From positions 96,001 through 160,000 of the IMG/VR virus record IMGVR_UViG_3300045988_154761: a stretch of DNA of 64,000 bases, one strand, 5' to 3'. The notes under the pieces were generated by a model. The model had not been told where the DNA came from, made no database searches, and was given only the letters and a program-made list of their open reading frames with translations. The stretch comes from a virus. The position numbers were made by a program, and so were the translations under genes. Position 1 is the first letter of the stretch. The number at the start of each line of letters is the position of its first letter. Shown piece by piece: positions 16,599-46,433 of the stretch.

Positions 16599-16627
16599 TT
16601 GACATTTACCTCTCCTTATGATATTCT
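16599..16627 (+). promoter_or_regulatory. sigma70/sigmaA-like promoter inside an anti-SD/SD hairpin
   Basis: TTGACA 16599-16604, 17 nt, TGA-TATTCT; spacer ACCTCTCCTTA (16608-16618) is complementary to TAAGGAGAGGT (16642-16652). Confidence 0.65.
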
Positions 16628-16658
16628 TTTAGTAGAAAAAATAAGGAGAGGTGTTTTT

Positions 16659-17453
16659 ATGAACCTTTGCAATCAGTATAATCGTTTCGTTCGTTTTGTT
16701 GGTGATATTCTCATTACTGACCCTTGTTATATTATCCGCGAAGACCGCAAGATGAATTATAATGCTTATCCTAAGATGGAAGATTATTATTCCAAATATA
16801 AGATTATTGGGGATGGACACAAAGGTTATCCTACTCCTGATATGTATGAAGATGTTATTTATATTGAAATGAAGAAACCTCTTCGTATCTACGACCTTCC
16901 TGAAAGTCATCGTACTCCTGAGAGAGAAGCGAAGCTTGTTGATGCTTATGAAACGTGGATTAGAGGGACAAGAACAAAAGACCCTAATATTCACGTGATT
17001 CCTCTTTCTCCCACTTACGAAACTGAAAATGAAGCTTACAACAAAGCTGTAGCAAAGTGGGATTCTGAACAGGAAGATGACTGGGGAAAGTGCTGCTGCG
17101 GAGAAGCCATGGAAAAGCTTGGCCTTAATACTTTTATCGTCTGCGACACTATTTATGGTGATTGGTCTTGCACTGTTTTTAATTCTTTGACCAAGGAAAA
17201 GATGGGAGAGTTCTGTGCTGATTCTGGTCAGGTTGGTATTTTCCTTATGAGCGAAGTTCTTAAATATAACCCTAATCTTGACCTTCCTAAGCATTGTGCT
17301 ACTATTATTAAAAATTTTGATGGACATGTTCGTGTCAACAAGAAGAATAATGGTAAGTATACTTATGATGGCGAAGAATATGATGATATTGTTGCAGAGG
17401 TTGAAGGTGTCAGCAACACCTTAAATTTCAAAAGTGCTCAGACTGGATTTTAA
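16659..17453 (+). CDS. hypothetical Cys-containing protein (264 aa)
   Basis: ATG 16659 after TAAGGAGAGG; the track start 16599 is the promoter -35. Confidence 0.75.
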   Translation: MNLCNQYNRFVRFVGDILITDPCYIIREDRKMNYNAYPKMEDYYSKYKIIGDGHKGYPTPDMYEDVIYIEMKKPLRIYDLPESHRTPEREAKLVDAYETWIRGTRTKDPNIHVIPLSPTYETENEAYNKAVAKWDSEQEDDWGKCCCGEAMEKLGLNTFIVCDTIYGDWSCTVFNSLTKEKMGEFCADSGQVGIFLMSEVLKYNPNLDLPKHCATIIKNFDGHVRVNKKNNGKYTYDGEEYDDIVAEVEGVSNTLNFKSAQTGF

Positions 17454-17462
17454 GGAGATAAT

Positions 17463-18098
17463 ATGAAGCAGATTAGACGTAATGTTTTTGAAACTAATAG
17501 TAGCTCAAGTCATTCTCTTGTAATTACGACTGATAATGAACATTATACGAGAAAAGAAATCAACGATGAGTTTTATCTTACCAGAGAGGGCAAGGTAAGA
17601 TTGTGGGAATCTTCTCTTGAGTTTTACCGTTCACCTTTTGATATGCTGACAACTTTTAAGGGTAAATTGAGATATGCTATTGCTTCTTCTAACGGCAATC
17701 TTGTAGATGAACTTCGAGAAATTTGCAAGAAGTATATTGATGGATTCATAGATTTTGAATTTGATACAAAAGATTATGTTTGGGATTCAAATGTTAAAGA
17801 TTATGTAGAAGCAAAAAGTCCTGTCCCCAACTATGGTGGTACTGATGACTATCAAATTGAGGGCTGGCTTAAGCATTATAATATTTCTCTTGAGGAATTT
17901 TTAATTAATAAGAGATATATTGTAGTTGTTGATGGCGATGAATACACCATTTATGACCACATCAAAAAATCGGGTCTTTTTGACACATCAAAAATTATTC
18001 ATGATAGTTATGCTGAAGAACAAGAAAAATGGCACAAGCAATATTTAGCTCAACTGGAAAAGGAGAAAAAAGATGCAGACTCCAAACATGAAGACTAA
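17463..18098 (+). CDS. FETNSSS-family protein, paralog 2
   Basis: MKQIRRNVFETNSSSSHSLVI; ATG after AAGGAGA. Confidence 0.75.
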   Translation: MKQIRRNVFETNSSSSHSLVITTDNEHYTRKEINDEFYLTREGKVRLWESSLEFYRSPFDMLTTFKGKLRYAIASSNGNLVDELREICKKYIDGFIDFEFDTKDYVWDSNVKDYVEAKSPVPNYGGTDDYQIEGWLKHYNISLEEFLINKRYIVVVDGDEYTIYDHIKKSGLFDTSKIIHDSYAEEQEKWHKQYLAQLEKEKKDADSKHED

Positions 18099-18522
18099 AC
18101 GCAAAATGAAGCGTTATGAATTATCTGACTATTTTCTTTCTTTAAATACAGCAGAACAAATTGTTCTTCTTACTGACGCAGGGTTTAAAGAGGGATTTTG
18201 GAGAGAATCTAAAAAGTCTGACCATTATTGGATGACTTATCATTTTTGTCTTTTCAACTCCAAAATAGAAAGAATTTCGTATGAATTTAGCTTTGATGTA
18301 GCAATTGACCTTGATGACCTTAAGTCTTGGAATGATTTTGATAATCTTGAAGTCATTGATGATGATTTTGGTCAGCCGTACAATGCTTTTTTCAAAGCTC
18401 AAGATAGTGGACATAGTTTTTCTTTTCTTGATATGATTATTAAGAAGTATGAAAATAAAATGAACAAACTGGTAGAATCCAAAATTTTAGAAGAGGTAAA
18501 ATTAAATGAAACAAATCCGTAA
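18073..18522 (+). CDS. hypothetical protein (149 aa)
   Basis: ATG after AAGGAGA; overlaps both neighbours. Confidence 0.65.
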   Translation: MQTPNMKTKRKMKRYELSDYFLSLNTAEQIVLLTDAGFKEGFWRESKKSDHYWMTYHFCLFNSKIERISYEFSFDVAIDLDDLKSWNDFDNLEVIDDDFGQPYNAFFKAQDSGHSFSFLDMIIKKYENKMNKLVESKILEEVKLNETNP

Positions 18523-18943
18523 AAACGTATTTGAAACGAATTCTTCTTCTACTCACACTCTTGCTATTTGTACCGAGGATGAATATAAAAAATGGCAAGA
18601 AGGTAAAATGCTTTTTAACAAATGGAATGAAACTTTTATTAAAAACTCCATTAATATTACTAAGCAAGATAAAGTAGAAGCTGAAGAAAGATATAACACA
18701 TATAAAGGGAAGTACTATAAAGACTGGTCTGAACTTACAGAGGCAGAAAGAGACGAGTATACTTATAATTATATTGCCCAGCAACGCAGACAGGAAAAGA
18801 GCTTTTCTTTTGAAGAGGATGGTTTGACCTATCAAGAATTTATGCAAGATTGTAGTAACGGGGGACTTGAAACCGAAACTTCTCGCTATACTTCCCCGAG
18901 CGGAGACAAGCTTGTTATTACTTGTGCTTATGGTTATAACTAA
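18506..18943 (+). CDS. FETNSSS-family protein, paralog 3 (shorter)
   Basis: MKQIRKNVFETNSSSTHTLAI. Confidence 0.7.
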   Translation: MKQIRKNVFETNSSSTHTLAICTEDEYKKWQEGKMLFNKWNETFIKNSINITKQDKVEAEERYNTYKGKYYKDWSELTEAERDEYTYNYIAQQRRQEKSFSFEEDGLTYQEFMQDCSNGGLETETSRYTSPSGDKLVITCAYGYN

Positions 18944-18992
18944 TAGTTAAAAATATTTTAATAGGTCAAGGAGATTATTTTTTATTAACTCC

Positions 18993-19021
18993 TTGACTTA
19001 TCTCTTTTTATAGAGTATAAT
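18993..19021 (+). promoter_or_regulatory. sigma70/sigmaA-like promoter flanked by hairpins
   Basis: TTGACT 18993-18998, 17 nt, TATAAT 19016-19021; upstream hairpin GTCAAGGAG (18966-18974)/CTCCTTGAC (18989-18997) overlaps the -35; the spacer pairs with the downstream SD. Confidence 0.65.
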
Positions 19022-19047
19022 TTAGTTACTCGAAAGGAGAGATGATT

Positions 19048-19446
19048 ATGCTCGAAGGAATTAATATTATTAGTACAGAAGTAACTAAAGATGTAGATGT
19101 TCCTCTTTTTATTTTTATTTGTGGAATTGCTTGTGTTTTAATGTTTTGTTCAATCCAACTTCTAAAAGTTGGTTTTGGAATTACAAAATCCACTTCGCAC
19201 AAACTTTTTAAAATTGTTTTTAACAGTTTAAATATTGTTATTTTAGGAGTTTGCTTATTCTTTTCTTCTATTATAGTAAGCAAAGCTCTTAATGATTGTT
19301 TTTTCAATCCAATTTATTATAATGAATACACTGTAACGATTTCCGATGAAGTTAGTTACAATGAATTTACTAAGAAATATGAAATTCTTGAATACAATGA
19401 AAAAGATAGCACTTATGTAATTAGGGAGAAAGAAAATGTCGATTGA
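19048..19446 (+). CDS. small membrane protein, tandem paralog 1 of 4
   Basis: MLEGINIISTE, TM segments, ...KYEILEYNEKDSTYVIREKEN; alternative ATG at 19042. Confidence 0.7.
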   Translation: MLEGINIISTEVTKDVDVPLFIFICGIACVLMFCSIQLLKVGFGITKSTSHKLFKIVFNSLNIVILGVCLFFSSIIVSKALNDCFFNPIYYNEYTVTISDEVSYNEFTKKYEILEYNEKDSTYVIREKENVD

Positions 19447-20517: not shown

Positions 20518-20519
20518 AA

Positions 20520-22464: not shown

Positions 22465-22466
22465 TA

Positions 22467-23462: not shown

Positions 23463-25181
23463 ATGTATAACTACAACAATCCTAACAAGAAGAATAACAC
23501 TAAGGCTTGGGCTCCTAAGCCTGAAAAGCCTGTTACTAAGTCCAACCGAGTTAGCCGTAAGGCTTCTTTCATGGACAAGGTTGAGAATACTGCTAAGGGT
23601 TACTACACTCAGATTGCAGTTCCTTCTCTTCCTGCTGATAAGCAGTACACTTCTAACGGTGCTATTGCATACAAGTCCTCTGGTTCTGCTCTTCTTGACA
23701 TCAACACTTCCATCTCTGCTCTTCGTAGCCTGCCCGATGGTGATATTGTGAAGAAGTTCCGTGCAGCTTATTGTGAGAATCCTCGTCTCGCTATTCGTTG
23801 GCTGTTCTATGCTGGCGATATCCGTGAGGGTCAGGGTGAGCGCCGTCTCTTCCAGATTTGCCTTAAGGATATGATGAACAATGGTGGTGCTCAGATTGTG
23901 GCGAACCTGATTCCTATGATTCCTGAGTATTCTCGTTGGGATTATATCTATGTTGTCATGGATAATCCTACTACTAAGCCTGTTGTTCGTGAACTGATTC
24001 GTAAGCAGTGGAAGGAAGATATGGCTAATATGAAGAAGGGCAAGTCCATTAGCCTTATGGCGAAGTGGCTTGATAGTGCTTCTTCTCACAGCCATGATAC
24101 TCGTAAGCGTGGTCTTAAGACTATGGATATGCTCGGTCTGACTGAGCGTGAGTATCGCAAGGGTCTGTCTGCTCTTCGTAAGCACCTTGACGTTGTTGAG
24201 CGTAAGATGTCTTCTCAGAATTGGCAGAGCATTGATTATGAGACTGTTCCCTCTAAGGCAAACCTTAATTACAATAAGGCTTTCCTTCGTAATGATGAGG
24301 AGCGCCGTCGTGCCTATCTGAACGCTCTTACTAAGGGCGAGGCAAAGATTAATTCTTCTGTATCTAATCCTTGTGACATTGTTCACAAGTATTGCGAGAA
24401 TGATTGGGGTACTTCTCCTCATTCTTATGATGCCGCCCTTGAAGGCATGTGGAAGGCTCTTCCCAATCTTGTAACCGATGATAGTTCCACTATTGTTGTT
24501 GCCGATGGCTCTGGTTCTATGTGCGCTACTGTTGGTCGTACTCGTATGACTGCTCTTGAGGTTGCTAACTCTCTTGCAATTTACTTTGCAGAGCGTGCTA
24601 AGGGTGCATATAAGGGTCGTTACATTACTTTCTCTGCACGTCCTCAGATGGTTAATGTTAATCATGACTCTTTGCGTGCAAATCTTAGGGAAGCTGCTCG
24701 TCATAGTGAGATTGCTAATACCAACCTTGAAGCAGTATTTGACCTGATTCTTGATACTGCAATTAAGAATCATTCTCCTCAGAGTGATTTGCCAAAGAAT
24801 ATTCTGATTATCAGTGATGGTGGTTGGGATTCTATGGTAAATATTCGTACTCTTAATACTGGCAGTGGTTATGGTTATTGGGGCTATAACAGCACTCGTG
24901 CTACTGCTAAGGAAGCTCCTGCTTTCCTTAAGTCCATTGAGCAGAAGTACAAGAACGCTGGATATGAGATGAGCAAAATTTGTTATTGGAATGTTTGCGG
25001 AAACGGTACTACTGGTAACGGTCTTCCCATGACTAAGAATGATTATGGTATCATGGTCAGCGGGTTTAGTATCCAAACTTTGAAAATGATTCTCAGCGGC
25101 AAGACTAATCCTTGGGATGCACTTATGGAAGTGGTTTTGGATAAGCGTTACGACAAGATTGAAGAGCTAGCTTTTAAGTAA
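23463..25181 (+). CDS. DUF2828-like protein: helical N-terminal region plus C-terminal vWA domain with MIDAS
   Basis: ATG 23463 after AAGGAGA; NGAIAYKSSGSALLD, RLAIRWLFYAGDIREGQGERRLF, VVADGSGSM (DxSxS). Confidence 0.7.
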   Translation: MYNYNNPNKKNNTKAWAPKPEKPVTKSNRVSRKASFMDKVENTAKGYYTQIAVPSLPADKQYTSNGAIAYKSSGSALLDINTSISALRSLPDGDIVKKFRAAYCENPRLAIRWLFYAGDIREGQGERRLFQICLKDMMNNGGAQIVANLIPMIPEYSRWDYIYVVMDNPTTKPVVRELIRKQWKEDMANMKKGKSISLMAKWLDSASSHSHDTRKRGLKTMDMLGLTEREYRKGLSALRKHLDVVERKMSSQNWQSIDYETVPSKANLNYNKAFLRNDEERRRAYLNALTKGEAKINSSVSNPCDIVHKYCENDWGTSPHSYDAALEGMWKALPNLVTDDSSTIVVADGSGSMCATVGRTRMTALEVANSLAIYFAERAKGAYKGRYITFSARPQMVNVNHDSLRANLREAARHSEIANTNLEAVFDLILDTAIKNHSPQSDLPKNILIISDGGWDSMVNIRTLNTGSGYGYWGYNSTRATAKEAPAFLKSIEQKYKNAGYEMSKICYWNVCGNGTTGNGLPMTKNDYGIMVSGFSIQTLKMILSGKTNPWDALMEVVLDKRYDKIEELAFK

Positions 25182-25196
25182 GTTTTAAATATGAAA

Positions 25197-25230
25197 GGGG
25201 AAGAGAATTATTCTCTTCTCCTTTTTATTT
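25197..25230 (+). terminator. intrinsic terminator
   Basis: GAAGAG/CTCTTC stem followed by CTTTTTATTT. Confidence 0.6.
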
Positions 25231-25244
25231 ATAAAGGAGATATA

Positions 25245-26477
25245 ATGTCTTAGTATATTAGTTAGGTTTCATCTTTAATGGAACAATGGGATTTTGATAA
25301 AAATACTGTTTAGCCTAATGAAATAACAACAGGAGCGCATCAAAAAGTATTTTGGAAATGTCCTGTTTGCAAAGGTAAATGGAGTAATATTCCCCATACA
25401 GCAGGAAAAAATAGTTGCCCATATTGTAATAAAAGAAAAGTTTTAAAAGGTTTTAATGATTTAAAAACTAAAAATCCAGAATTACTTTGTGATTGGGATT
25501 ATTCTTTAAATCAAATTTTACCAGAAGAAGTTACTTTTTATTCAAATAAGAAAGTTTTTTGGAGATGTCACAAATGCGGATATTCATGGGAAGCAACTAT
25601 TAATAGTAGGACAAGACTTCATGCAGGATGCCCAAATTGTGCAAAAGGACATAAAACGAGTTTTCCCGAACAAGCAATATTTTTTTATTTAAGTAAACAT
25701 TTCTTTTGTATTAACAATTATAAATATGATAATACAAAAAAAGAAATAGATATATATATTCCATCTTTGCGTATCGGAATAGAATATAATGGAAGTTATT
25801 ATCATTCAAAATCTTAGACTAAGGATGAGAAAAAGAAAAAAGATTTGCAAAATTTAGATATTTAGTTAATTACAATAAAAAATAGCAAAGAGGACAAAAA
25901 CAACAACAATCTTATAGAACATAAATTAAATGATTCTTCTTTAGAATGGGCCATAAAACAACTTTTAAAAAATTTATATCTGGAAGATAATATTTCTTTA
26001 AACAAAGATTATCAAGATATTTTAAAATAGTATAAACAAAAAGAATATCAAAATTCTTTGGGAGAATTATATCCAAATTTATTAGAAGAATGGGATTATG
26101 ATAAAAATGTTTTAAATCCTTTATTAATATCTCCAAATTCTAACAAAAAAGCTTGGTGGAAATGTAAAAAATGCGGACGCAGTTGGCAAGCTGCTATTAA
26201 TAGTAGAACCCCTCCTCGTAGTAATGGTTGTAAAAAATGCGTGGGAGTTTATGAAAAAGCTGTTCTTTGTTTAGAAAACAGAAAAATTTATATCGGACTT
26301 AACAAACTTTGTAAAAAGTTAAACGTTTCAAGTGGAGCAATAACAACTTGCATAAAAAGAAGTAAAAACAAAATCGGACATTGTAAAGGATATCATTGGA
26401 AAATATATATTTTACATAAAGAGAAAAATTTTTCTTGGCCTTTCTCTGATGAGTTAACTTACGAAAGAGAGGGGTAA
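25245..26477 (+). CDS. homing-endonuclease-like protein: repeated treble-clef zinc ribbons flanking a nuclease-like core; 6 in-frame TAG
   Basis: ATG after AAGGAGA; frame checked; three W(D/E)xDKN...W.C..C...W......R.....C..C modules; EIDIYIPSLRIGIEYNGSYYH core; the track ORF 26058-26477 is its 3' part. Confidence 0.65.
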
Positions 26478-26493
26478 TTCCCTCTCTTTTTTT
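26466..26493 (+). terminator. intrinsic terminator overlapping the stop codon
   Basis: AGAGAGGG/CCCTCTCT followed by TTTTTTT. Confidence 0.65.
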
Positions 26494-29133: not shown

Positions 29134-29402
29134 ACACTACTCAAGTTGCTTTGTGCATCATTCTTGCTATCGGAGTTTTAACAATTTTCTTTTTAGCAGG
29201 AACTATTATTGGTGGTATCCACGCTTATTCAAAAGCTTTTGCAGAAGCCGAAGAAACTCATAAAAATTTAGATGAGGCTAAAGAAAGTCTTATTAAATCT
29301 TTAGAGGGGAAAGCAGAAGCACAAAAAGAACTTATTGAATCCTATGAAGAGCTGGTAAAAACTCTTCAAGAAAAAAATAATAAACCCTTGACAGGAAACT
29401 AA
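29130..29402 (+). CDS. membrane-anchored coiled-coil protein (90 aa)
   Basis: N-terminal TM helix VALCIILAIGVLTIFFLAGTIIGGI followed by a Lys/Glu-rich helix. Confidence 0.65.
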   Translation: MNTTQVALCIILAIGVLTIFFLAGTIIGGIHAYSKAFAEAEETHKNLDEAKESLIKSLEGKAEAQKELIESYEELVKTLQEKNNKPLTGN

Positions 29403-29416
29403 TCTTATGGTATATT
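29388..29416 (+). promoter_or_regulatory. sigma70/sigmaA-like promoter of the large ncRNA
   Basis: TTGACA 29388-29393, 17 nt, TGG-TATATT (29411-29416). Confidence 0.7.
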
Positions 29417-29422
29417 AAGATT

Positions 29423-30195
29423 GTCCCAAGGGAAAGGACGAAAAAAGTGCGGAAGAGATTCCCATTGGTTTGCACTACTCGGGCCTGATAGACAAATCAC
29501 GCTCTTACCTGTAAGACACACAATTGAATATTCAATAATAGCTGAGATGCAATGACTTCGAAAGAAGCACCCTTCATAGGAATAGGAACTATGAAGATAC
29601 TAAGAGCATCTAGCTCTCCACCTGAAAGTTAATGGTGGAAAATTCTTGCAAGAATCACGAAATCCTACCCTCCGAATTCTTGCTCGGTGGTGCAGGTTGA
29701 TTGCCAACTAAAGATGTTGGACAAAGAGCGAGATACCTTTTAAGTGTAATGGTTAGAGGCTTATAGTAGGGTGAATACACCTATTCCCTACAAATGACTT
29801 GCTGGTGAAGAGTATCAGCCAAAGAGCGTCGCATTGTCCAGAGTACTGTAGTATAGGACCAAAGGCTCGTAGTGAGTCCAGATGCTAGGACCAGAGGCTC
29901 ATAGTGAGGCGAACGTTGTCTATTCCTCACCTTTAATAAGAATCCGATGGGGGTCGGAGCGCTTATTATCGTATTTGAATAACCTACGGGTAGGTTGTTC
30001 GCAGTTTTACAGAAGACTTGTAGATTTATAATCACTTGTCCGTCGAAATGGATAGCCGCAAACGGGAAAGTTTCAATGAGTGTAGGAAGTAATGTAACGG
30101 GGAATAACTTCCAAGTCTTCACAATTTATTGAATTAGCTAATTTAATAAAAGGTCTCATAATTAATTTAATATTGATTATGAGACTTTTATTTTT
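29423..30195 (+). ncRNA. large (~770 nt) structured noncoding RNA candidate with its own promoter and terminator
   Basis: no plausible ORF (only a 113-aa antisense one); visibly higher GC than the flanks; many helices (CTTCATAG/CTATGAAG, CCAAC/GTTGG, AACCTA-CGGG-TAGGTT, GGAAGT/ACTTCC, GTGAGG/CCTCAC); internal duplicated module GGACCA(A/G)AGGCTC(G/A)TAGTGAG. Confidence 0.6.
30153..30195 (+). terminator. intrinsic terminator of the large ncRNA
   Basis: 10 bp stem GTCTCATAAT (30153-30162)/ATTATGAGAC (30177-30186) followed by TTTTATTTTT. Confidence 0.75.
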
Positions 30196-31769: not shown

Positions 31770-31798
31770 TTGACAAACTCGAAAGAGTATGTTAATAT
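31770..31798 (+). promoter_or_regulatory. sigma70/sigmaA-like promoter of the hairpin sRNA
   Basis: TTGACA 31770-31775, 17 nt, TGT-TAATAT (31793-31798). Confidence 0.7.
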
Positions 31799-31804
31799 AA
31801 TAAT

Positions 31805-31930
31805 AAGAACTGTGGTACAATTTACCTCCTTATAATAGACTGAATTTGCTAATAAGGCCACCTCCTTTTTCGTATTTTGTTCATGTTTGTTTCCTCCAAA
31901 AACAAATTTTGTACCACAGTTCTTTTTTAT
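31805..31930 (+). ncRNA. ~125 nt hairpin RNA (sRNA or attenuator) carrying three CCUCC motifs
   Basis: 16 bp perfect arms AAGAACTGTGGTACAA (31805-31820)/TTGTACCACAGTTCTT (31909-31924) followed by a T-run; CCTCC at 31825-31829, 31861-31865 and 31893-31897; the predicted TSS coincides with the 5' arm. Confidence 0.55.
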
Positions 31931-31952: not shown

Positions 31953-32177
31953 ATGAGATTGAATGATGTATCTCTAATAAGTTTTGCTCTTTATCTTTTA
32001 TGCGGGTTTGCCGTAACATATAATGTTTATAATTGTCCTGCTAATAAAAATGATAAAGAAGTAACCTTGTTGCATTATTTAACTTTGATTTTTTGCTGGC
32101 CTATTGCTCTTGTTATGGCAGCAATTTATTGGTTTAAGATTCAAAGTGAAATAAGAAAACAGAAGAAAATTAAATAA
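31953..32177 (+). CDS. small membrane protein (74 aa)
   Basis: ATG 7 nt after AAAGGAG; two hydrophobic helices. Confidence 0.6.
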   Translation: MRLNDVSLISFALYLLCGFAVTYNVYNCPANKNDKEVTLLHYLTLIFCWPIALVMAAIYWFKIQSEIRKQKKIK

Positions 32178-32182
32178 AACTC

Positions 32183-32211
32183 TTGACAACAGACTCTTTT
32201 TGGTTTATACT
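32183..32211 (+). promoter_or_regulatory. sigma70/sigmaA-like promoter inside an anti-SD/SD hairpin
   Basis: TTGACA 32183-32188, 17 nt, TATACT 32206-32211; AGACTCTTTT (32191-32200) pairs with AAAGGAGTCT (32232-32241). Confidence 0.65.
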
Positions 32212-32248
32212 ATTGATAGTAAATTAGACTGAAAGGAGTCTTTTCTAT

Positions 32249-33070
32249 ATGTGCAAATGGTGTGAGAATTATAGATTCACTATTAACGCTACGAGCAAAA
32301 AGAATCTTATTAACCATGGTGATTTTTATGTTCATGTTAATTATTGTCCTGTATGTGGTACTTTACTAAATGAAAATCTCAAAAAGGACAATGATTTAAA
32401 CAAACGCTATATTATTCGTATTAAGCCTAATGTAACAGGACTGGGTGTCCCTGTAAATGGACAAAACTATTATTATACTGCGGAAGGTATGACCCGCGAA
32501 GAGGTCATTTTTGAAACAAAAAATGAAGCTTGTCCTTTTAAGACTTACTTCGAAGCAAAATGCACTGCTGATTGGTTTTTCAATGAAGAAGATTATGAAA
32601 TTGAAGAAATTGTAAGCCCTAATACACCAAAAGAATCCTCAACAAAAAAAAGCAAAGAGCGAGTTTATTTTGCTAAAATTAAAGTTCCTATTGGAAGCAA
32701 AGAAGACCAAGAAAGAAAAGTTTTTTATAAGGGGGCCACTCATTTTGGTGATAAACCTATCCTTACAGATGAAGATGGAGCAAAATATTTTAGCTCTACC
32801 AAAGCTCTTAAAGAAGAATTGGATTGGTTTTATAAACCAGAAGATTATATTGTTATTTTCAAAGATATTGTCAAAATGGAATTGCCTGACCATAAAGATG
32901 AAAAGAAAGAAAAACTTCCTCATTTTACGAAGGAAGATTTTTACTATAAGTCTGATTCTGGTAGTGTAATTAGTACAATTTACGATAGAAACACGAACAA
33001 AAAATACGAATTTTCTTCTAAGACAATTGATAAATTTAATCAAATCATAGATAAACTTAACAGTTTATAA
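32249..33070 (+). CDS. hypothetical protein (273 aa) with N-terminal zinc ribbon
   Basis: CKWC...CPVC. Confidence 0.75.
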   Translation: MCKWCENYRFTINATSKKNLINHGDFYVHVNYCPVCGTLLNENLKKDNDLNKRYIIRIKPNVTGLGVPVNGQNYYYTAEGMTREEVIFETKNEACPFKTYFEAKCTADWFFNEEDYEIEEIVSPNTPKESSTKKSKERVYFAKIKVPIGSKEDQERKVFYKGATHFGDKPILTDEDGAKYFSSTKALKEELDWFYKPEDYIVIFKDIVKMELPDHKDEKKEKLPHFTKEDFYYKSDSGSVISTIYDRNTNKKYEFSSKTIDKFNQIIDKLNSL

Positions 33071-34788: not shown

Positions 34789-35131
34789 TTATCAATACAA
34801 CGATAGCGACCCTCGTTTTAAAGTTTTATTTCGCAATGGAGATTGGCTTGTAATTAAATTTATCAATGATGGAGCTTTTTATTCTTACTGCTTAAATTGT
34901 AGAGAATATCTTCATGCTACCTCCACTTTGTCTAATTCAGAATTTATTACAAGATACTCTCTTGAAAGAGAATTTACTTATTGCCCTTATTGCGGAAGTA
35001 AAAATCTTAAAGATAAAAAATCAGCAAAAAAGAAAAATTATTCTTATCTAATTGAAGAAAAAGCTATCCAATACAAAGACTTACCAGAAGAATTAAAATT
35101 GTATCCTTATAAAATTGGTAAGAAAACTTAA
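34733..35131 (+). CDS. zinc-ribbon protein (132 aa)
   Basis: CLNC...CPYC. Confidence 0.6.
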   Translation: MKKMSKKQRKKIRQAKFSDYQYNDSDPRFKVLFRNGDWLVIKFINDGAFYSYCLNCREYLHATSTLSNSEFITRYSLEREFTYCPYCGSKNLKDKKSAKKKNYSYLIEEKAIQYKDLPEELKLYPYKIGKKT

Positions 35132-35138: not shown

Positions 35139-35167
35139 TTGACAACTCTCTTTGCTTGTAGTATTAT
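35139..35167 (+). promoter_or_regulatory. sigma70/sigmaA-like promoter inside an anti-SD/SD hairpin
   Basis: TTGACA 35139-35144, 17 nt, TATTAT 35162-35167; CAACTCTC (35143-35150) pairs with GAGAGTTG (35192-35199). Confidence 0.65.
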
Positions 35168-35206
35168 ATAAATACAAATCGAAAAAGTAAGGAGAGTTGT
35201 TAAATT

Positions 35207-35743
35207 ATGTTTACTAAACAGGAATATCTTGAAGAATATAAAAACAATAATAAAAAAGCCAACATTACTAAACTTTTTGGCTATATTGAGGAACGTCTTG
35301 ACCATAATTCCAGTTTAGGCTGTAACGTGGCTTGTTTTGAAAATTTCCAGCTCAGTCCGACTTTATGGAAAATTCTAACCAATGATAAACAATTTAAAGT
35401 GATTTGTAAATGTAGAGGATACGACCTTGCTTTTCAGAAGAATGAAGATGGTTCTTGGGTTGATATTACCAGCGCCAAAGCAAAAGAAAACGCAGAAATT
35501 TGGAATCAGCTTTTTAAAGATAATGATGTAAGTTATTTCTTTAATGTTATTATGGGGCGTCTTTTTGCTGTTGGTCGTAAAAAGAACATCAAACATCCTT
35601 ATTATACTATTCATAAAGATTGCTGTAGTTCTATTGTTTGGGAATTGGCAAACAATAAAACTTTTCTTGAAAAGATTGTTGAAAATGGATGGGACTTTGA
35701 TTGTGGTCCTGATTCTATTCCTTATATTCAAATTAAGGGATAA
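35207..35743 (+). CDS. hypothetical protein (178 aa)
   Basis: ATG after AAGGAGAG. Confidence 0.7.
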   Translation: MFTKQEYLEEYKNNNKKANITKLFGYIEERLDHNSSLGCNVACFENFQLSPTLWKILTNDKQFKVICKCRGYDLAFQKNEDGSWVDITSAKAKENAEIWNQLFKDNDVSYFFNVIMGRLFAVGRKKNIKHPYYTIHKDCCSSIVWELANNKTFLEKIVENGWDFDCGPDSIPYIQIKG

Positions 35744-36831: not shown

Positions 36832-36860
36832 TTGACAACTCCTTTTAAGTTTGGTATACT
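36832..36860 (+). promoter_or_regulatory. sigma70/sigmaA-like promoter inside an anti-SD/SD hairpin
   Basis: TTGACA 36832-36837, 17 nt, TATACT 36855-36860; CAACTCCTTT (36836-36845) pairs with AAAGGAGTTG (36884-36893). Confidence 0.7.
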
Positions 36861-36901
36861 TTAAACATGAAGTGAATCCATTGAAAGGAGTTGTTTAATA
36901 A

Positions 36902-37240
36902 ATGTATAATCGTAATTTTCATAATAAAATTGGTTCGGATAAAATCAAGCTCACTTTCCACTCTCGTGACCGTGGTTTGGAAAGATTGGGTATTAAGAAT
37001 GAAAGAGAGCTTCGTCAGTTAGCTTGCAATGCTCGTAACAAAGGTATCAATCTTGATGCTTTAACTATTTACAATTATGAAAAGAATGGGCTAACCAGTG
37101 AAGAAATGTATGCTTTTAAGCGTCGTTTCCATACCAAGTCTAACAGTGAACGTATTTATTACCACAAAGGTTTTGTCTTTGTATTCGCTGGTAAAAATGC
37201 TTGCACACTTAAAACTGTAATCGAATTAAAAAATATTTGA
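36902..37240 (+). CDS. hypothetical protein (112 aa)
   Basis: ATG after AAAGGAG. Confidence 0.7.
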   Translation: MYNRNFHNKIGSDKIKLTFHSRDRGLERLGIKNERELRQLACNARNKGINLDALTIYNYEKNGLTSEEMYAFKRRFHTKSNSERIYYHKGFVFVFAGKNACTLKTVIELKNI

Positions 37241-38921: not shown

Positions 38922-38950
38922 TTGACAAGTATCTTTTTTTATGTTAAACT
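38922..38950 (+). promoter_or_regulatory. sigma70/sigmaA-like promoter enclosed by a 14 bp inverted repeat
   Basis: TTGACA 38922-38927, 17 nt, TAAACT 38945-38950; GACAAGTATC (38924-38933) pairs with GATACTTGTC (38964-38973). Confidence 0.6.
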
Positions 38951-39026
38951 AATAATAGAAAAGGATACTTGTCCTTTATTTTAATTTAAATAAATCTGTT
39001 GAAATACACAGAAGAATGGAGATAAT

Positions 39027-40058
39027 ATGGCAACTGTTTAGTATCATTATGGTAAAAATAATTCTTTGCTTCGTTGGTATCATCCTATTGTAAGAGGTGT
39101 GACTTATAATAATGTGGTGGTAATTGATTGGCCTAAGAGTGAACTAAAGAGCGCAAGTATTGATATGTGTACGCAACCAAAGCTTAGTCCTGAAAAGATG
39201 TATAGTCTTTATGGGTATAAGCCAGACGTTGTTACAAACGCTTTCTTTTTTGATACTGCAAGCGGAACTTCTATCTGGAATTTGAAAAGTAATAATACCA
39301 TTTATGCTCAGGATGGTAATTTCTCTAATGGTTGGGGTATTACAAATTCTGGAAAGATTATGAATGGCGTATTTAATAATGGTGTTGGTTGGAGAGATTT
39401 TGGCACAGAATATCCTGCTTTGTTTAAAAATAAACAACCTCAATCTGTAAAAAACTATGCTGACATTGATTATGAAGCCAAAAGACAGATGTTCGGTTGG
39501 ACAAAGACAGATGGTAATCCTAAAAACGAAAAGTATTTTATTGTTTCTGTTGTATCTGGTGGTATGAAACTTTCCGTTGCTCAGAATCTTATTAAATCTC
39601 TTTTTCCTGATGTAGATTATTGTTGCAATCAAGATGGCGGAAATTCTACTTACACAAACTTTGAAGGAAAGCGTCTTTCTGCGTCTGGTTGGTTAAGACC
39701 TGTTGATTCTATTCTTGCTTTCTGGCTTCGCTCTAATGCTGAAAGAGAAAAAGCAGAAATAGAAGAAAAAAAGCAAGACAAGGCTAACAAGAAAGAAGAA
39801 AACCGTCCTAAGAAAACTGGTTATCGTTGTCAGTTAGGAGCATTTAGTAATTCAACTCGCGCAATTACTTATAGAAATGAAATTAGAACTCTTACTGGCG
39901 TAATTGATTATTCAACTGCTTTTTGTATTCAAGACCCCAAGACCAAGCTCTATAAAGTTCAAGTAGGATTCTTTGCTAAAAAATCTGGCGCTGAAAAAGT
40001 TAAAGCTGATTTAGCTGAAAAGGGATATAATTGTTATATCTGCTATGTGGAGGAATAA
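39027..40058 (+). CDS. putative cell-wall lysin: phosphodiester-glycosidase (NAGPA/DUF2233)-like domain plus C-terminal SPOR domain; 1 in-frame TAG
   Basis: ATG after GGAGATA; TAG at codon 5; VVTNAFFFD and NQDGGNSTY motifs; C-terminal YRCQLGAFSN...YKVQVGFF SPOR-like repeat. Confidence 0.65.
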
Positions 40059-40446: not shown

Positions 40447-40731
40447 GTGATTTCTGATATTACCTCTCCTATTGATTAGGAAATTGCAGATTTTATTCAA
40501 CGTATTATTGACAACGATGAAACTCTGGCTACTTTAACTGATACTTTCTTTATCAGTTATGATTATGAATATGAAAATGTTTATATTTGTACTACCTATC
40601 CACAGTATTTAACTGTAATTAATCACCAACTTTTTAAAGATTTGTGTGATATAATTAATGAGTATTATGGATTTTCTGTCTTTGTTAGAAAAGTTGACTC
40701 AATTATTAGCATTAAATCCAAGGAAAACTAA
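40447..40731 (+). CDS. hypothetical protein (94 aa), GTG start, 1 in-frame TAG
   Basis: 94 codons interrupted only by one TAG; start assignment tentative. Confidence 0.4.
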
Positions 40732-40751
40732 CAATTTAATTTAATAAATAG

Positions 40752-40780
40752 TTGACAACACCTCTCTTTTATGGTATATT
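40752..40780 (+). promoter_or_regulatory. sigma70/sigmaA-like promoter inside an anti-SD/SD hairpin
   Basis: TTGACA 40752-40757, 17 nt, TATATT 40775-40780; CACCTCTCTTTT (40759-40770) pairs perfectly with AAAAGAGAGGTG (40794-40805). Confidence 0.7.
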
Positions 40781-40810
40781 AACTATACTAAAAAAAAGAG
40801 AGGTGCTTTT

Positions 40811-41371
40811 ATGTTTAAAATTTTGTGTATTGTTGGCGGATTCTTTTTTATTGCACTTGTTGTATTTGTTTGTCATTTTGCTTGTATTATTTATAAAGAT
40901 GAAGATGATGGATACAAAAATACAATAATTGATTGGATTAAACAATATCACAAAGATTGGCGTAATTGGGCGCATTTAAAGTTTAACGAATGGAAAAAAT
41001 ATTATATTTTAGCTCCTGATGAATGGAGATTAACATGGTTTTCTCCTAAGCGAACCATTAGAGATAAAAAAGGTCTTTGGGATACAGTTTATATTAACTT
41101 TGGTTTTATTGGAAATATTAGATATGTCCTTTTTAAGCATAACATGGACAATAAGTATGAAAAGAATAAAGCTGCTCAAAGTTCTCAAGATAATTTAAGA
41201 TATGTTCTTGAAGCTGTTCAAGGAGATATTGATAAAATTCAAAAGAAAGCCGAAGAAGAAATTAATAAAGCCAAAGAAGAAACAAATAAGATTCGAGAAT
41301 CTTATTTAAACGAAGAATCTTATTTAAATAAAGAAATTGAATTAAAATCTACTGATAAATGGGAGAATTGA
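40811..41371 (+). CDS. membrane-anchored protein, paralog of 41373-42002
   Basis: N-terminal TM helix; shared VYINFGFIGNIRY motif and C-terminal coiled coil. Confidence 0.7.
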   Translation: MFKILCIVGGFFFIALVVFVCHFACIIYKDEDDGYKNTIIDWIKQYHKDWRNWAHLKFNEWKKYYILAPDEWRLTWFSPKRTIRDKKGLWDTVYINFGFIGNIRYVLFKHNMDNKYEKNKAAQSSQDNLRYVLEAVQGDIDKIQKKAEEEINKAKEETNKIRESYLNEESYLNKEIELKSTDKWEN

Positions 41372-41372
41372 T

Positions 41373-42002: not shown

Positions 42003-42049
42003 ATAAAAGATTTCTTTTATTTAATTAAAAATGTTAAGGAGAACAATTA

Positions 42050-42580: not shown

Positions 42581-43262
42581 TGGATTTAATTTAAAAAAAG
42601 ATAGAATTACTTTTGACTGTATGTCAGAAGATATGCAAATGAGTGATGCAGGATTTAACGCCCTTATGGGATGTACTATCCTGTGGGGATTGATTTGTAA
42701 TTTCTTCATCTGTATGTTCCTTGAAACACAAGTCTTTAGCTTTGTATTGTCTCATCCTCTTCTCTTTATTCTAGGTTATTTCGCTCTTGCTTTTCTCGGG
42801 GCTATGATTACTAGTGGCACAGAAAACGCTGTAGTTGCTTTCCTTGGGTTTAATCTTATTTGTTTACCCATTGGAGCACTTCTAAGCGTTTATGTGGGCC
42901 AGTATACAGCGTTGAGTATTAGCTATGTATGTCTTCTTACTGCTATTATTGTAGTAATTATGATTATTGTTAGTACAGTATTTCCAGAGTATTTTTGTTC
43001 TCTTGGACATATCCTTCTTGTATCTTTAATTAGTATTATTTTTATTGAGGGAGTTTTAGTATTCTTCCTTGGATACGAAGGTCATGTAATTGATTATCTT
43101 GTAGTAGCACTGTTTTCTCTTTATATTGGGTATGATTGGTATTGTTCTCAGAGCTATGCTGCTACACCTTATAATGCCATCAGTTGTGCAACAGACCTTT
43201 ATCTTGATATTATTAATATCTTTGTTCGTTTGCTTGCAATTCTTGGCAAGAAAAAAGATTAA
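42573..43262 (+). CDS. Bax inhibitor-1/YccA-like multi-pass membrane protein
   Basis: 6-7 hydrophobic helices and C-terminal ATDLYLDIINIFVRLLAILG, typical of the BI-1 family. Confidence 0.65.
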   Translation: MDNGFNLKKDRITFDCMSEDMQMSDAGFNALMGCTILWGLICNFFICMFLETQVFSFVLSHPLLFILGYFALAFLGAMITSGTENAVVAFLGFNLICLPIGALLSVYVGQYTALSISYVCLLTAIIVVIMIIVSTVFPEYFCSLGHILLVSLISIIFIEGVLVFFLGYEGHVIDYLVVALFSLYIGYDWYCSQSYAATPYNAISCATDLYLDIINIFVRLLAILGKKKD

Positions 43263-43266
43263 ATAC

Positions 43267-43295
43267 TTGACAACTCCTTATTTTTTTGGTATTAT
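43267..43295 (+). promoter_or_regulatory. sigma70/sigmaA-like promoter inside an anti-SD/SD hairpin
   Basis: TTGACA 43267-43272, 17 nt, TATTAT 43290-43295; ACAACTCCTTA (43270-43280) pairs with TAAGGAGTTGT (43310-43320). Confidence 0.7.
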
Positions 43296-43325
43296 TTAAG
43301 TATCAAGAATAAGGAGTTGTTTTTT

Positions 43326-43583
43326 ATGGAAAAGAAAAAGTATACTTACGATTTAACTTTTGAGGAAGTCCTTGAAGAAATTTGGTTTGAAGATTGTTGG
43401 TATTAGGGTAATAATTTTGGTGATGGTACTATCATTTATGCCAATGTTGATAAAGAACTTTGCATGAATACTTTTGGTGGAGCTATGGGTGGACATACTC
43501 ATCACCTTATTCTTACTGAGAGAATTTATGAACAAATGTATCGTCGTGTATATACTCAACCTGATGCTGAAAGGAGAGCGTAA
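43326..43583 (+). CDS. hypothetical protein (85 aa), 1 in-frame TAG
   Basis: ATG after TAAGGAG; TAG at 43404-43406; frame checked to TAA at 43581-43583. Confidence 0.55.
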
Positions 43584-43978: not shown

Positions 43979-44292
43979 TGGAGCGTATTAAAAAGGGACG
44001 TAAACCCCCTACTCGTGATAAGAGAGAGAACTGTGGTATTGTAACTTCTCTTCTTGATGCCAATGGTAATAATATTATCACTGGTAATCTTTATGAGTTT
44101 AAAAGTCAGAAGTATCATTATATGGGAAAGGTTTTTTATAATAGATATCAGAAGGCTTTTGGTATTTTTATGGGGTGCTGGTATGGAGATAGGAATCCTA
44201 ACAATCCCGAAAACTATGGCAAGTTTGTAGCCATCCCTAAAGATAATGGCATGAAGAATCAAATTTTTCCTGTTGAAGAAATGGAGGTTTAA
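43978..44292 (+). CDS. hypothetical protein (104 aa)
   Basis: TGATG junction; ATG after GGAAGGAG. Confidence 0.65.
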   Translation: MERIKKGRKPPTRDKRENCGIVTSLLDANGNNIITGNLYEFKSQKYHYMGKVFYNRYQKAFGIFMGCWYGDRNPNNPENYGKFVAIPKDNGMKNQIFPVEEMEV

Positions 44293-44293
44293 T

Positions 44294-44500
44294 ATGAAAA
44301 TCACACACGTTAAATCCAAAGTTGTCTTACCAGAAGAAAACTATTGGTATGACATTAATTATAACACAGAAATTGCAACTTGTTCTCATTGTAACCGTAG
44401 AGGAAAAATTAGACTCAAAATTACTAAGGAGGGTGTCTACGCAATCAGTAATCCTTATTGTCCCGCTTGTGGAGCTTTTATGAAAAACGGCTGTAATTGA
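44294..44500 (+). CDS. zinc-ribbon protein (68 aa)
   Basis: ATG after TGGAGG; CSHC...CPAC. Confidence 0.6.
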   Translation: MKITHVKSKVVLPEENYWYDINYNTEIATCSHCNRRGKIRLKITKEGVYAISNPYCPACGAFMKNGCN

Positions 44501-44508
44501 GGTATAAT

Positions 44509-44811
44509 ATGTCAAAAATTGTTTGTGCTGCTATTAAATTTACAAGCAAAGCAGATGAAGACAACATTATTGTTCTTCCTTGTATTCGTCATGGTGATGG
44601 ATACAAGCAGTTTGTTTATCTTAATTTTGTATTAGCTGGAAATTATTCTCGTGGCGATTGGAACAAAGAAGAAGGTTTTGTTGACAGCGATGGAAAATTT
44701 CATTCAAGAGAAGAAGCTTTTAAAATTGTAAAAGATTCTCTTCCTGCTTCTCTTATTTACTTTAAAGAACAGCATAAAGAAACCGAACTTTACTCGGAGG
44801 ACTTATATTAA
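44509..44811 (+). CDS. hypothetical protein (100 aa)
   Basis: ATG after TGAGGT. Confidence 0.65.
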   Translation: MSKIVCAAIKFTSKADEDNIIVLPCIRHGDGYKQFVYLNFVLAGNYSRGDWNKEEGFVDSDGKFHSREEAFKIVKDSLPASLIYFKEQHKETELYSEDLY

Positions 44812-45080
44812 TGAATAATAAAAAACATCCTGATACCGTTTCTTATGATGTCTATGAACAAGTTGCGTGGGAGAGAGACCTCGTAGAAGACCAGTTGAAT
44901 ACACTTGGGTTTGGAGTAGGTAGTAAAGTAACATGCAGGAAGAAACTTGTAGCTACATATCAAAAAGACGGACGCTATAATGTTGCTCGAACCTTTGAGG
45001 TTTGTTCTGAATGTGGAGAACAGTTACATTCAGATATGAATTTCTGTCCTTATTGCGGAAGGAAAATTTTAGATGACTAA
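44811..45080 (+). CDS. hypothetical protein (89 aa) with C-terminal zinc ribbon
   Basis: TAATG junction; CSEC...CPYC. Confidence 0.65.
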   Translation: MNNKKHPDTVSYDVYEQVAWERDLVEDQLNTLGFGVGSKVTCRKKLVATYQKDGRYNVARTFEVCSECGEQLHSDMNFCPYCGRKILDD

Positions 45081-45450
45081 TAATATTTTTGCTATGCCTA
45101 TTGGTCTTAGAGGGACAAGCACTGTTTGGCATAACGACACTAAAATTGGTATTTGTTTAACTTCTAATAATTCTCCTTTGCTTGGAAACTTTGTTCCTTT
45201 AAATGAAATTTCTGTTATGGATAATAAAGGGGATAATCCGTTGTCTGAAAATGAACTTAAAACCATTACAGAAATTAGAACAGATATTTATGAAATTAGC
45301 CCTGAACATGAGAGATATATGTTACTTAATGCAGACGAAGAAATTTATCTTGGGGAAAGAATAATTCATTTATTTTATCTTTCTCATCGTGATGAATTTC
45401 TTGTAGTTGGTATTAATTATTCCATTGCTGACCCTGAAAAAATTTGTTAA
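45073..45450 (+). CDS. hypothetical protein (125 aa)
   Basis: 8 nt overlap with the upstream gene. Confidence 0.65.
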   Translation: MTNNIFAMPIGLRGTSTVWHNDTKIGICLTSNNSPLLGNFVPLNEISVMDNKGDNPLSENELKTITEIRTDIYEISPEHERYMLLNADEEIYLGERIIHLFYLSHRDEFLVVGINYSIADPEKIC

Positions 45451-45457
45451 TAAACCC

Positions 45458-45486
45458 TTGAAATAATCCTTTTATTTTGATATAAT
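45458..45486 (+). promoter_or_regulatory. sigma70/sigmaA-like promoter
   Basis: TTGAAA 45458-45463, 17 nt, TATAAT 45481-45486; inverted repeat TTTTGATA/TATCAAAA straddles the -10. Confidence 0.6.
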
Positions 45487-45520
45487 TACTGTATCAAAAT
45501 TGAAAGGAGATAAAGCTGAT

Positions 45521-46345
45521 ATGAGCTTTTATCTGAAAGAAACCACAACTAACTCTTATGTTCAGTTTGTTGGTAATCAGTACAGCTATATTTCAAATCC
45601 TGACAAGAAACATTTGTTTAAGGATGTTGACAAAGCTGCCAACATTGTTCTCAATCATTCTCTTGTTGACAAGTTTTTGTCAAATCGCGTATTTTCCATC
45701 TATCACGCCGAAACTGGCAATCTGGTATATGATAAACTTGTCTCTAATGTGGCAAATAAAGGATTGATTCTCTCAAGTGTTTCTAAAGCGGTTCTTAACT
45801 TGCAAGAAAGCTTAGGTGAAGCACCTGTCACAAATGAGAATCCTATCGAAATGAAATTTAAAGATTCAGTTTTGCCTGTTGTTTCTCATTCCAATTGCGC
45901 AAAAGCAATGATTGATGGTGATGAACTTCCTGTCAAAGATTCAACCAAAAGATATCAAGCAAGCGAATATTCCAGAAATAAGATTCTTCCTCCTTTGGAA
46001 GCCATGTCAAAAACTTTTGAAAATATCACTTCTGCTATTAATTCTCTTCCGTCCAATGAAGACTTAGCTACACAACTGGGTGATTACAATGCTCAGGTAG
46101 TTGATATTCTTCATTATATCGAGTTCTCTCACCTTGATGCTTGCAATGGTTATCTTATCTTTAAAAAGCTTCAAGATGTCCTTATTGCAAGACGTACTGT
46201 TAAGGAACAAATGGAAATTATCAACAAGCTTGAAAATTGCGGTTTGATTGTTGAAAAAATTAATGCCGCTAACAATCGAGCTAAGAAAACACTTGAAGAA
46301 TCTCGTTCCTATTGTCCTCGTAGTGACATTGATATTTTTGATTAA
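45521..46345 (+). CDS. hypothetical protein (274 aa)
   Basis: ATG after AAAGGAGA; the track start 45500 lies in the leader. Confidence 0.7.
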   Translation: MSFYLKETTTNSYVQFVGNQYSYISNPDKKHLFKDVDKAANIVLNHSLVDKFLSNRVFSIYHAETGNLVYDKLVSNVANKGLILSSVSKAVLNLQESLGEAPVTNENPIEMKFKDSVLPVVSHSNCAKAMIDGDELPVKDSTKRYQASEYSRNKILPPLEAMSKTFENITSAINSLPSNEDLATQLGDYNAQVVDILHYIEFSHLDACNGYLIFKKLQDVLIARRTVKEQMEIINKLENCGLIVEKINAANNRAKKTLEESRSYCPRSDIDIFD

Positions 46346-46372
46346 AGTTTTTGATTAAAATTTAATAAACAC

Positions 46373-46401
46373 TTGACAGCTTCTTTCTTACTTGCTATAA
46401 T
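46373..46401 (+). promoter_or_regulatory. sigma70/sigmaA-like promoter inside an anti-SD/SD hairpin
   Basis: TTGACA 46373-46378, 17 nt, TATAAT 46396-46401; 14 bp pairing of 46376-46389 with 46414-46427 (contains AAAGGAG). Confidence 0.7.
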
Positions 46402-46433
46402 GTAGCTACAGTAAAGAAAGGAGCTGTTATTTT

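Follow-up and report, generated by a model that had tools for sequence, protein, structure and literature searches.

In bacteriophage T4, the genes e (lysozyme), soc, 49 and I-TevI carry hairpins that occlude their Shine-Dalgarno sequence (SD) and are relieved by an internal promoter; late promoters sit in the region encoding the 5' strand of the SD-occluding helix (PMC3014915). A second described arrangement is the PeSL (promoter-early stem-loop) promoter/terminator cassette of the T4-like phages RB49, phi1, PST and nt-1, whose stem-loop has been shown to terminate or attenuate (PMC2839356, PMC4122927). Here we analyze a series of promoter-enclosing hairpins that recall both systems, located in a 64,000-nucleotide stretch of viral DNA (IMG/VR record IMGVR_UViG_3300045988_154761, positions 96,001 to 160,000), which we call the window and whose own numbering we use. 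The recurring units are referred to as cassettes and named by the first position of their -35 box.

The window contains nine plus-strand promoters of the form TTGACA-17-TAnnnT that are each enclosed by a hairpin. The original prediction, made from the sequence alone, had listed eight arm pairs and spoken of eight or more such promoters; all eight pairs are present, with gapless arms slightly longer than listed, and we found a ninth at 38922, whose 3' arm is not an SD. In all nine, part of the spacer is complementary over 12-18 bp to a segment 20-40 nt downstream, which in eight of the nine is the SD of the next gene. These eight SD-type sites have the -35 box TTGACA (TTGACT at 18993), a spacer of 17 nt and a -10 box TAnnnT, frequently with an extended TG. 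Their arms form 12-16 bp without gaps and are 19-41 nt apart. The 5' arm is pyrimidine-rich and lies in the spacer between -35 and -10, beginning at some sites within the ACA of the -35 box; the 3' arm is purine-rich, includes AAGGAG or GAGAGG and is located 4-9 nt upstream of the ATG. Genes preceding the cassettes terminate 4-50 nt ahead of each -35, and a conserved tandem-stop sequence, TTTAATAAACAC, is found ahead of the -35 at several of them. The nine cassettes are:

16599-16661, + strand: cassette 1; -35 TTGACA 16599-16604, 5' arm 16608-16619 (ACCTCTCCTTAT), -10 TATTCT 16622-16627, 3' arm and SD 16641-16652 (ATAAGGAGAGGT), GTTTTT, ATG 16659; dG -22.1, z -4.8; orthologues found
18993-19050, + strand: cassette 2, the weakest; -35 TTGACT 18993-18998, 5' arm 18998-19009, -10 TATAAT 19016-19021, 3' arm and SD 19034-19045 (9 Watson-Crick and 3 G.U pairs), no T-tract, ATG 19048; duplex -14.7, z -2.8
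32183-32251, + strand: cassette 3; preceding gene ends at 32177; -35 32183-32188, 5' arm 32191-32204, -10 TATACT 32206-32211, 3' arm and SD 32228-32241, TTTCTAT, ATG 32249; duplex -18.1, z -3.2
35139-35209, + strand: cassette 4; preceding gene ends at 35131; -35 35139-35144, 5' arm 35142-35157, -10 TATTAT 35162-35167, 3' arm and SD 35185-35200, ATG 35207; dG -25.1, z -5.8
36832-36904, + strand: cassette 5; preceding gene ends in tandem stops TAATAA 36822-36827; -35 36832-36837, 5' arm 36835-36848, -10 TATACT 36855-36860, 3' arm and SD 36881-36894, ATG 36902; dG -25.0, z -4.6
38922-38990, + strand: cassette 6, absent from the original prediction; -35 38922-38927, 5' arm 38925-38942, -10 TAAACT 38945-38950, 3' arm 38955-38972 (AAAAGGATACTTGT-type), then invariant CCTTTATTTTAATTT; dG -23.9, z -6.0
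40752-40813, + strand: cassette 7; preceding gene (with an in-frame TAG) ends at 40731; -35 40752-40757, 5' arm 40757-40770, -10 TATATT 40775-40780, 3' arm and SD 40794-40807, CTTTT, ATG 40811; z -6.1
43267-43328, + strand: cassette 8; preceding gene ends at 43262; -35 43267-43272, 5' arm 43270-43285, -10 TATTAT 43290-43295, 3' arm and SD 43305-43320, TTTTT, ATG 43326; z -5.6
46373-46436, + strand: cassette 9; -35 46373-46378, 5' arm 46376-46389, -10 TATAAT 46396-46401, 3' arm and SD 46414-46427, TATTTT, ATG 46434; dG -27.7, z -5.9

At 43267 the fold is a nearly continuous 23-bp hairpin with a 5-nt loop, followed by U6. At 38922 the 3' arm is not a ribosome site and no start codon follows it; the next gene, at 39027, starts 55 nt beyond the hairpin arm and has its own SD. 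A conserved mini-ORF after this hairpin was considered and rejected, as its TTG start is CTG in relatives that still carry the hairpin.

As in the T4 genes, both arms are present in read-through RNA, in which the SD is predicted to be paired and untranslated, and transcripts from the internal promoter, which by promoter geometry lack the 5' arm, should be translatable. The T4 promoters, however, are gp55-dependent late promoters (TATAAATA) that hold back the translation of a few genes until the late phase, whereas the cassettes have consensus host-type -35/-10 promoters with the 5' arm in the spacer, recur nine times within 64 kb, are present in several phage clades, and are followed by a U-tract; their temporal logic would be reversed. 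PeSLs share with the cassettes the order of a stop in an A/T-rich stretch, a sigma-70-type promoter, an overlapping stem-loop, an SD and a start codon. Both are repeated units that recur between small genes of unknown function, with indels and replacements at the cassettes. In contrast to the hairpins of the window, PeSL stem-loops are short, local and G/C-rich, are found upstream of or over the -35, between the boxes, or over or just past the -10, lack an SD arm and leave the start site outside; moreover, their hosts are Gram-negative. Intrinsic (Rho-independent) terminators close a transcription unit with a stable hairpin and a U-rich tract directly behind it, a layout that the cassettes recall in part, yet the cassette stems are interrupted and span a whole promoter, and three sites lack a U-tract. 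Where present, the U-tracts comprise only 4-6 nt because the start codon follows. Finally, the RNase III hairpins of T7 and SP82 are likewise long, interrupted and intergenic on polycistronic early RNA; to our knowledge, none has an embedded promoter. The masking principle and the idea of a cassette are thus already known from the T4 genes and PeSLs, respectively; what appears to be new is the geometry, in which a single hairpin spans the -10 and start site with the SD as an arm, the use of host-type promoters, and the systematic deployment.

The pattern of promoters and SD hairpins is real and far beyond chance. Read-through segments of the eight SD-type sites folded with -20.5 to -27.7 kcal/mol (z -2.8 to -6.1 against dinucleotide shuffles), compared to z-scores of -1.3 to +0.9 for five promoter-led genes without hairpin (12017, 15115, 26505, 49006, 59521). 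Among the 35 promoter-like sites of the window, duplex energies between spacer and downstream sequence were bimodal, the nine cassettes having -14.7 to -22.6 and the remaining sites -9.8 or weaker, except for the intragenic site 45666 (-13.0). Only 0.6% of 3000 random positions reached a duplex energy of -17. Pairing every 5' arm with every 3' arm gave -20.3 kcal/mol for cognate and -11.6 (sd 2.8) for non-cognate combinations; the cognate 3' arm was the best partner at eight of eight sites and none of 100,000 permutations matched the observed total. Because cognate pairing exceeds non-cognate pairing, the arms co-vary, differing from site to site while staying complementary, as the original prediction had claimed. 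We also ranked 73 plus-strand genes by the pairing of their SD region with the upstream 70 nt, irrespective of promoters. The eight reported genes came out on top, followed by a gap, and since the ranking gives exactly these eight, long-range SD-directed hairpins are confined to promoter-enclosing positions.

The cognate test, the bimodal energies and the promoter-blind ranking lead us to reject chance, or a shared consensus of anti-SD-like spacers and SDs, as the source of the pattern. Base composition is rejected as well: Enterocloster phage PMBT24 equals the window in GC (32%) and in its promoter and SD consensus, yet is without the embedded hairpin. An Rfam scan of the window returned only tRNAs at or above the gathering score and matched no RNA family at the cassettes.

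To describe transcripts, we assumed start positions by standard sigma-70/sigma-A geometry, about 7 nt past the -10, and modelled read-through RNA with a start 60 nt further upstream. At the eight SD-type sites the 3' arm begins 9-20 nt past the -10, and the predicted start falls 2-14 nt 5' of it, always beyond the 5' arm, giving predicted own-promoter leaders of 20-35 nt without the 5' arm. The claim that RNA from the embedded promoter holds the SD arm only agrees with this predicted geometry at all eight sites. At seven of them, the predicted probability of the SD being unpaired was 0.36-0.60 in own-promoter RNA and 0.002-0.15 in read-through RNA, in agreement with the proposed sequestration of the SD on the latter.

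The architecture is conserved and, judging from comparative evidence, acts at the RNA level. As relatives we used 13 IMG/VR contigs with 80-99% protein identity to the window, in which a strong hairpin is kept at every orthologous site that they carry. Variable columns amounted to 0 of 54 in the -35 and 3 of 54 in the -10, compared to 32% in the loops, 27% in the tail and 18-23% in the arms; as the hexamers are almost invariant relative to loops and arms, the promoters are under selection and the arms free to vary while pairing. Of 37 variable pairs, 20 pair in all variants and six include a double change; among the broken pairs, four come from a single recombinant copy (the contig L027) and two from site 18993. 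Orthologues of 38922 show AU<->GC and GC<->AU double changes in adjacent pairs, together with several CG<->UG changes. At 35139 there is a compensatory CG<->UA change and one pair is seen as GU, AU and GC, at 40752 there is a UA<->CG change, and the inner helix GCUAU/GUAGC of 46373 appears in relatives as GUUAU/GUAAC.

Across 73 distinct arm pairs, the two mismatches that were scored alike were very unequally represented, with 82 G.U and 18 A.C (p = 6e-11, the orthologues not being independent); at the nine sites of the window the counts are 13 and 1, respectively. Mostly, a U of the 5' arm faces a G of the SD. Because G.U far exceeds A.C, which a DNA hairpin or antisense RNA would not tolerate, the helix is most readily understood as one formed in the RNA of plus-strand transcripts, and the asymmetry disfavors a DNA cruciform or an antisense RNA.

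Several features of the cassettes resemble those of terminators, in line with the suggestion of the original prediction that a hairpin followed by a T-run might terminate transcription. Cassette genes have on average 5.9 T in the 10 nt before the ATG, compared to 2.8 T in 64 other genes, whose sequence is A-rich at this position (p = 7e-5), and six of the nine sites have at least four U within 8 nt after the stem. In eight of nine loops an inner helix of 4-7 bp connects the -10 region to the start region (mean z -1.8), which turns the cassette into one extended, interrupted hairpin whose apical loop is small; the same segment at 15 other promoters is mostly unstructured (most z +0.4 to +1.0). 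A consensus terminator scan does not call the cassettes, because their loops exceed 8 nt. It detected no conventional intergenic plus-strand terminator between 32 and 48.9 kb of the window. Elsewhere, three promoters without the cassette (12017, 26505 and 49006) are directly preceded by textbook terminators, and at 15115, 59521 and just 5' of 18993 there is a hairpin that has the -35 as its 3' arm:

11947-11984, + strand: textbook short-loop terminator just 5' of the hairpin-less promoter 12017
26463-26490, + strand: textbook terminator ahead of promoter 26505
48949-48988, + strand: textbook terminator ahead of promoter 49006
18964-18998, + strand: extra hairpin just 5' of cassette 2, GGTCAAGGAG at 18964-18973 with CTCCTTGACT at 18989-18998, the 3' arm taking in the -35; TATCTCTTTTTAT follows
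15088-15188, + strand: variant at promoter 15115, TGTCAAGAA at 15088-15096 with TTCTTGACA at 15112-15120, the 3' arm being the -35; the spacer holds the T-run CTTTGTTTTTTT

In addition, there is weak pairing (-13.5) between 15102-15119 and the SD region of gene 15176.

We lean, by a small measure, towards the reading that these are composite cassettes of about 65-80 bp in which a terminator, a promoter and a ribosome site are combined and which stand between consecutive co-directional operons in an early-type region of the phage. Each would begin with one or more stops of the upstream gene in an A/T-rich stretch, followed by a consensus -35 and, within the 17-nt spacer, the anti-SD 5' arm. Next would come the loop, which holds the -10 and start site and forms the inner helix, then the 3' arm containing the SD, a short U-rich tract and the start codon. 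In RNA arriving from upstream, the arms would pair into an extended, nearly continuous hairpin with Us behind it, so that part of transcription would be terminated or attenuated. On RNA that reads through, the SD would be sequestered and the first gene of the next operon would not be translated from it. The embedded promoter, in contrast, would yield a leader of 20-35 nt with only the 3' arm, leaving the SD free. The sequences themselves document the architecture with its statistics, conservation, covariation, strand asymmetry and predicted energies; start sites, termination and translational masking in vivo are what we infer from the arrangement. Termination seems required by site 38922, the U-tracts and the absence of other terminators; masking by the identity of the 3' arm and the SD, by the position of the promoter inside rather than after the hairpin, and by the three sites without U-tract. 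Termination may be the primary role of the hairpins; we rate its likelihood as no lower than that of masking. Secondarily, the cassettes, being repeated, would double as breakpoints for gene gain and loss.

Some observations weigh against this composite reading. The stems are interrupted, with arms 19-41 nt apart, and are less ideal than the five textbook terminators of the window, for which reason termination may be weak; at 18993, 35139 and 36832 the U-tracts are poor. Site 18993 is weak altogether: its SD is not masked in the longer context, and its pairing is broken and not maintained in relatives. Mutation pressure towards A/T on the spacer, acting against a fixed SD, could produce part of the G.U excess. 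The promoters 14022, 23332, 29388 and 31770, which have long leaders or non-coding RNA, show no embedded or preceding hairpin. Further, masking would reach only the first cistron of each downstream operon. Of the proposal that each gene's translation is tied to its own promoter, the part concerning the first gene of the downstream operon stands as a prediction, and its extension to every gene does not. Many downstream genes overlap or abut the preceding one, and coupling through these could spread the effect. Nevertheless, each computational test with the power to contradict the original prediction favored it, and we regard it as supported.

The hairpins might also gate translation only, hiding the SD on read-through RNA without terminating, so that the first gene is translated solely from own-promoter RNA. 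Such gating could turn early genes off when their promoters shut down, or stop expression from accumulating along the array. It would account for the 3' arm being the SD at eight of nine sites, the restriction of SD-directed hairpins to promoters, the strong predicted switch in SD accessibility and the lack of a good U-tract at three sites, and the T4 precedent operates in this way (PMC3014915). We nonetheless consider it unlikely, since it leaves aside the T-rich tract peculiar to cassette genes, the inner helices that compact the hairpin, the absence of other terminators between cassette-led operons, and site 38922, which keeps the hairpin and a conserved T-tract without a ribosome site; also, the SDs of downstream cistrons stay free. 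That a host double-strand RNase cuts the read-through hairpins, dividing polycistronic RNA into pieces closed off by a protective stem and perhaps freeing the SD, in the manner of the T7 early region or SP82 early mRNA, is in our judgment rather improbable. Interrupted helices of about 17-25 bp resemble known RNase III substrates, and the outer helix, internal loop and inner helix of the cassettes together reach this compatible length of about 17-25 bp. Bacillus subtilis RNase III is reported to cleave SP82 early RNA (in work cited by PMC4838370). Such processing would explain neither the location of the promoter inside the hairpin nor the U-tract, no conserved cleavage motif is seen in the freely varying arms, and SPO1, a close relative of SP82, is without the architecture.

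A last alternative places the function in DNA, as a dispersed inverted repeat involved in recombination (PeSL-like shuffling or MITE-like), or as a promoter cruciform or protein site, with no role in RNA. The cassettes do match one another as a repeat family; the gene content of relatives shifts exactly at cassette 43267, one breakpoint, in L027, falls within a 3' arm, and a second clade has near-identical cassettes before many different genes. We regard it as very improbable even so. The arms differ among copies and yet remain complementary, which speaks against a fixed protein site, and a terminal repeat conserved among copies, as in MITE-like or protein-recognized inverted repeats, is not what we find, since the arms differ and co-vary. 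T.G mismatches are about 4.5 times commoner than A.C, a bias that neither a DNA duplex nor a cruciform would favor, compensatory changes occur within orthologues, and loops of 19-41 nt disfavor cruciform extrusion.

The composite design is not restricted to the window. We scanned IMG/VR with the patterns TTGACAACTCC...GGAGTTGT and TTGACAACCTC...GAGGTTGT, which force complementarity by construction. Many of the matches also have a correctly spaced -10 and an ATG after a T-rich tail; some of these belong to further loci of the same clade, others to additional contigs of 48-381 kb, and several samples are represented. In the second clade mentioned above, a group of contigs of 48-100 kb, an almost identical cassette stands before many different genes; other uncultivated phage clades show the same design with different arms. 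Over all fetched loci the energies were again bimodal and 21 distinct cassette types could be told apart; in this set, which was pre-selected for strong duplexes, cognate pairs had -22.0 and non-cognate pairs -11.7, with the cognate arm best in 18 of 21. A compact version on a 381-kb contig (L141, 432-476) has a loop of about 12 nt around the -10, then U6 and ATG. On the minus strand of a 184-kb contig (L181, near 3286), a promoter-spanning hairpin has T9 behind it but no gene start, and looks like a pure embedded terminator.

Two control phages that share the types of promoter and SD lack the design. PMBT24, the nearest cultured relative of the second clade (one protein with 35% identity), contains about two dozen consensus promoters with no embedded hairpin and nothing beyond -13.3. 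The host-takeover promoters of SPO1 showed no embedded design either, their single strong match (-17.8) being a local leader hairpin. A literature search, whose coverage was incomplete, found no precedent in phages of Gram-positive hosts.

It is conceivable, and we propose it tentatively, that several uncultivated, apparently Firmicute-infecting phage clades share one insulator, in which the hairpin is both attenuator and mask, early operons are expressed only via their own promoters, and the cassettes are portable junctions for gene swapping. This proposal takes in the present lineage of about 216 kb, which seemingly reads TAG as sense, and at least one of the clades is present in a human-gut-type assembly. 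If true, it would be a genome-wide, host-promoter counterpart of the few late genes of T4, undescribed for phages of Gram-positive hosts as far as we could find. About 70 bp would unite terminator, promoter and ribosome site and insulate neighboring units at the level of RNA and protein. This would explain how co-directional early arrays without ordinary terminators escape cumulative expression, and would offer a route to silence early genes after promoter shutoff as well as a compact insulator part for Firmicute synthetic biology. In uncultivated phages with such hosts, the cassette signature could also serve to locate promoters, the limits of operons and recombination junctions.

The window has 32% GC, at least 13 tRNA genes at 0.4-10 kb, and mostly small plus-strand genes without known function; a PHROGs search assigned no function to the genes behind the cassettes. 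Megablast searches of 30-40 kb of the window and of a second-clade contig (L126) against GenBank phages gave no match. One protein of the window is present on the ENA assembly LIJU14-1_SAMEA2338626, which looks like a human-gut sample; the source phage is probably an uncultivated human-gut phage. Its relatives are IMG/VR contigs of 108-221 kb.

The breakpoint evidence covers cassettes 43267 and 46373. At the former, we compared gene content across the relatives L077-L089: the gene 43326-43583 behind the cassette is deleted in L082, L083, L086 and L087, in which the following gene is joined directly to the cassette, and is replaced by an unrelated gene in L080 and L084. At the latter, L027 has a junction inside the 3' arm.

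TAG is apparently a sense codon in this phage. Of 83 plus-strand genes, 66 end in TAA, 16 in TGA and one in TAG. The gene 39027-40058 has an in-frame TAG as codon 5 (39039-39041) that is conserved in 14 of 14 genomes, the TAG at 43404-43406 aligns with CAG (Gln) in relatives, and another in-frame TAG is found at 40477-40479. Several long frames are open only if TAG is read as sense, among them 8252-9232, 10382-11410, 25182-26477 and 49010-51392; the TAG-rich genes lie outside the cassette-led operons. Additional tRNA-like sequences with possible introns, which bear on TAG decoding, are located at 9681-9816, 10025-10329, 3244-3386 and 838-956. Rfam matches tRNAs at 9681-9813 and 3278-3341, and ARAGORN, with introns allowed, makes four more, weak tRNA calls, among them a gene whose anticodon is CTA and whose intron measures 219 nt.

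Further features lie at or near promoters without the cassette. Promoter 31770 precedes a structured RNA of about 120 nt (31770-31930; -33.1 kcal/mol, z -7.4) with a closing 16-bp stem and a U-run. It has no Rfam match and contains three largely unpaired anti-SD-like CCUCC motifs (near 31823, 31860 and 31893), which are kept in the most divergent relative and make it a candidate for an RNA that targets SD sequences in trans. Behind promoter 29388, about 750 nt lack a standard-code plus-strand ORF, and a strong terminator follows at 30149-30189 (region 29388-30190); the stretch would hold either a long non-coding RNA or a gene that TAG codons obscure, and in the relative L025 an ATG follows the corresponding leader. 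The motif TAGACTCTnACAGCAAA, with variants, recurs downstream of promoters in the tRNA region (489 and about 2720, 3120 and 4350) and at about 23385, just 5' of the gene 23463-25181, which matches phrog_850, annotated as 'RNA-binding protein'. Lastly, the consensus promoter 57186 has an anti-SD-like spacer, ACACCTCCTTCC, with no partner nearby; a possible partner, AAGGAAGGAAAG, lies about 130 nt downstream (near 57331), ahead of the gene 57382-58296, and an HNH-like DHKDGNKDNN motif is found further downstream of this gene, at about 58720.

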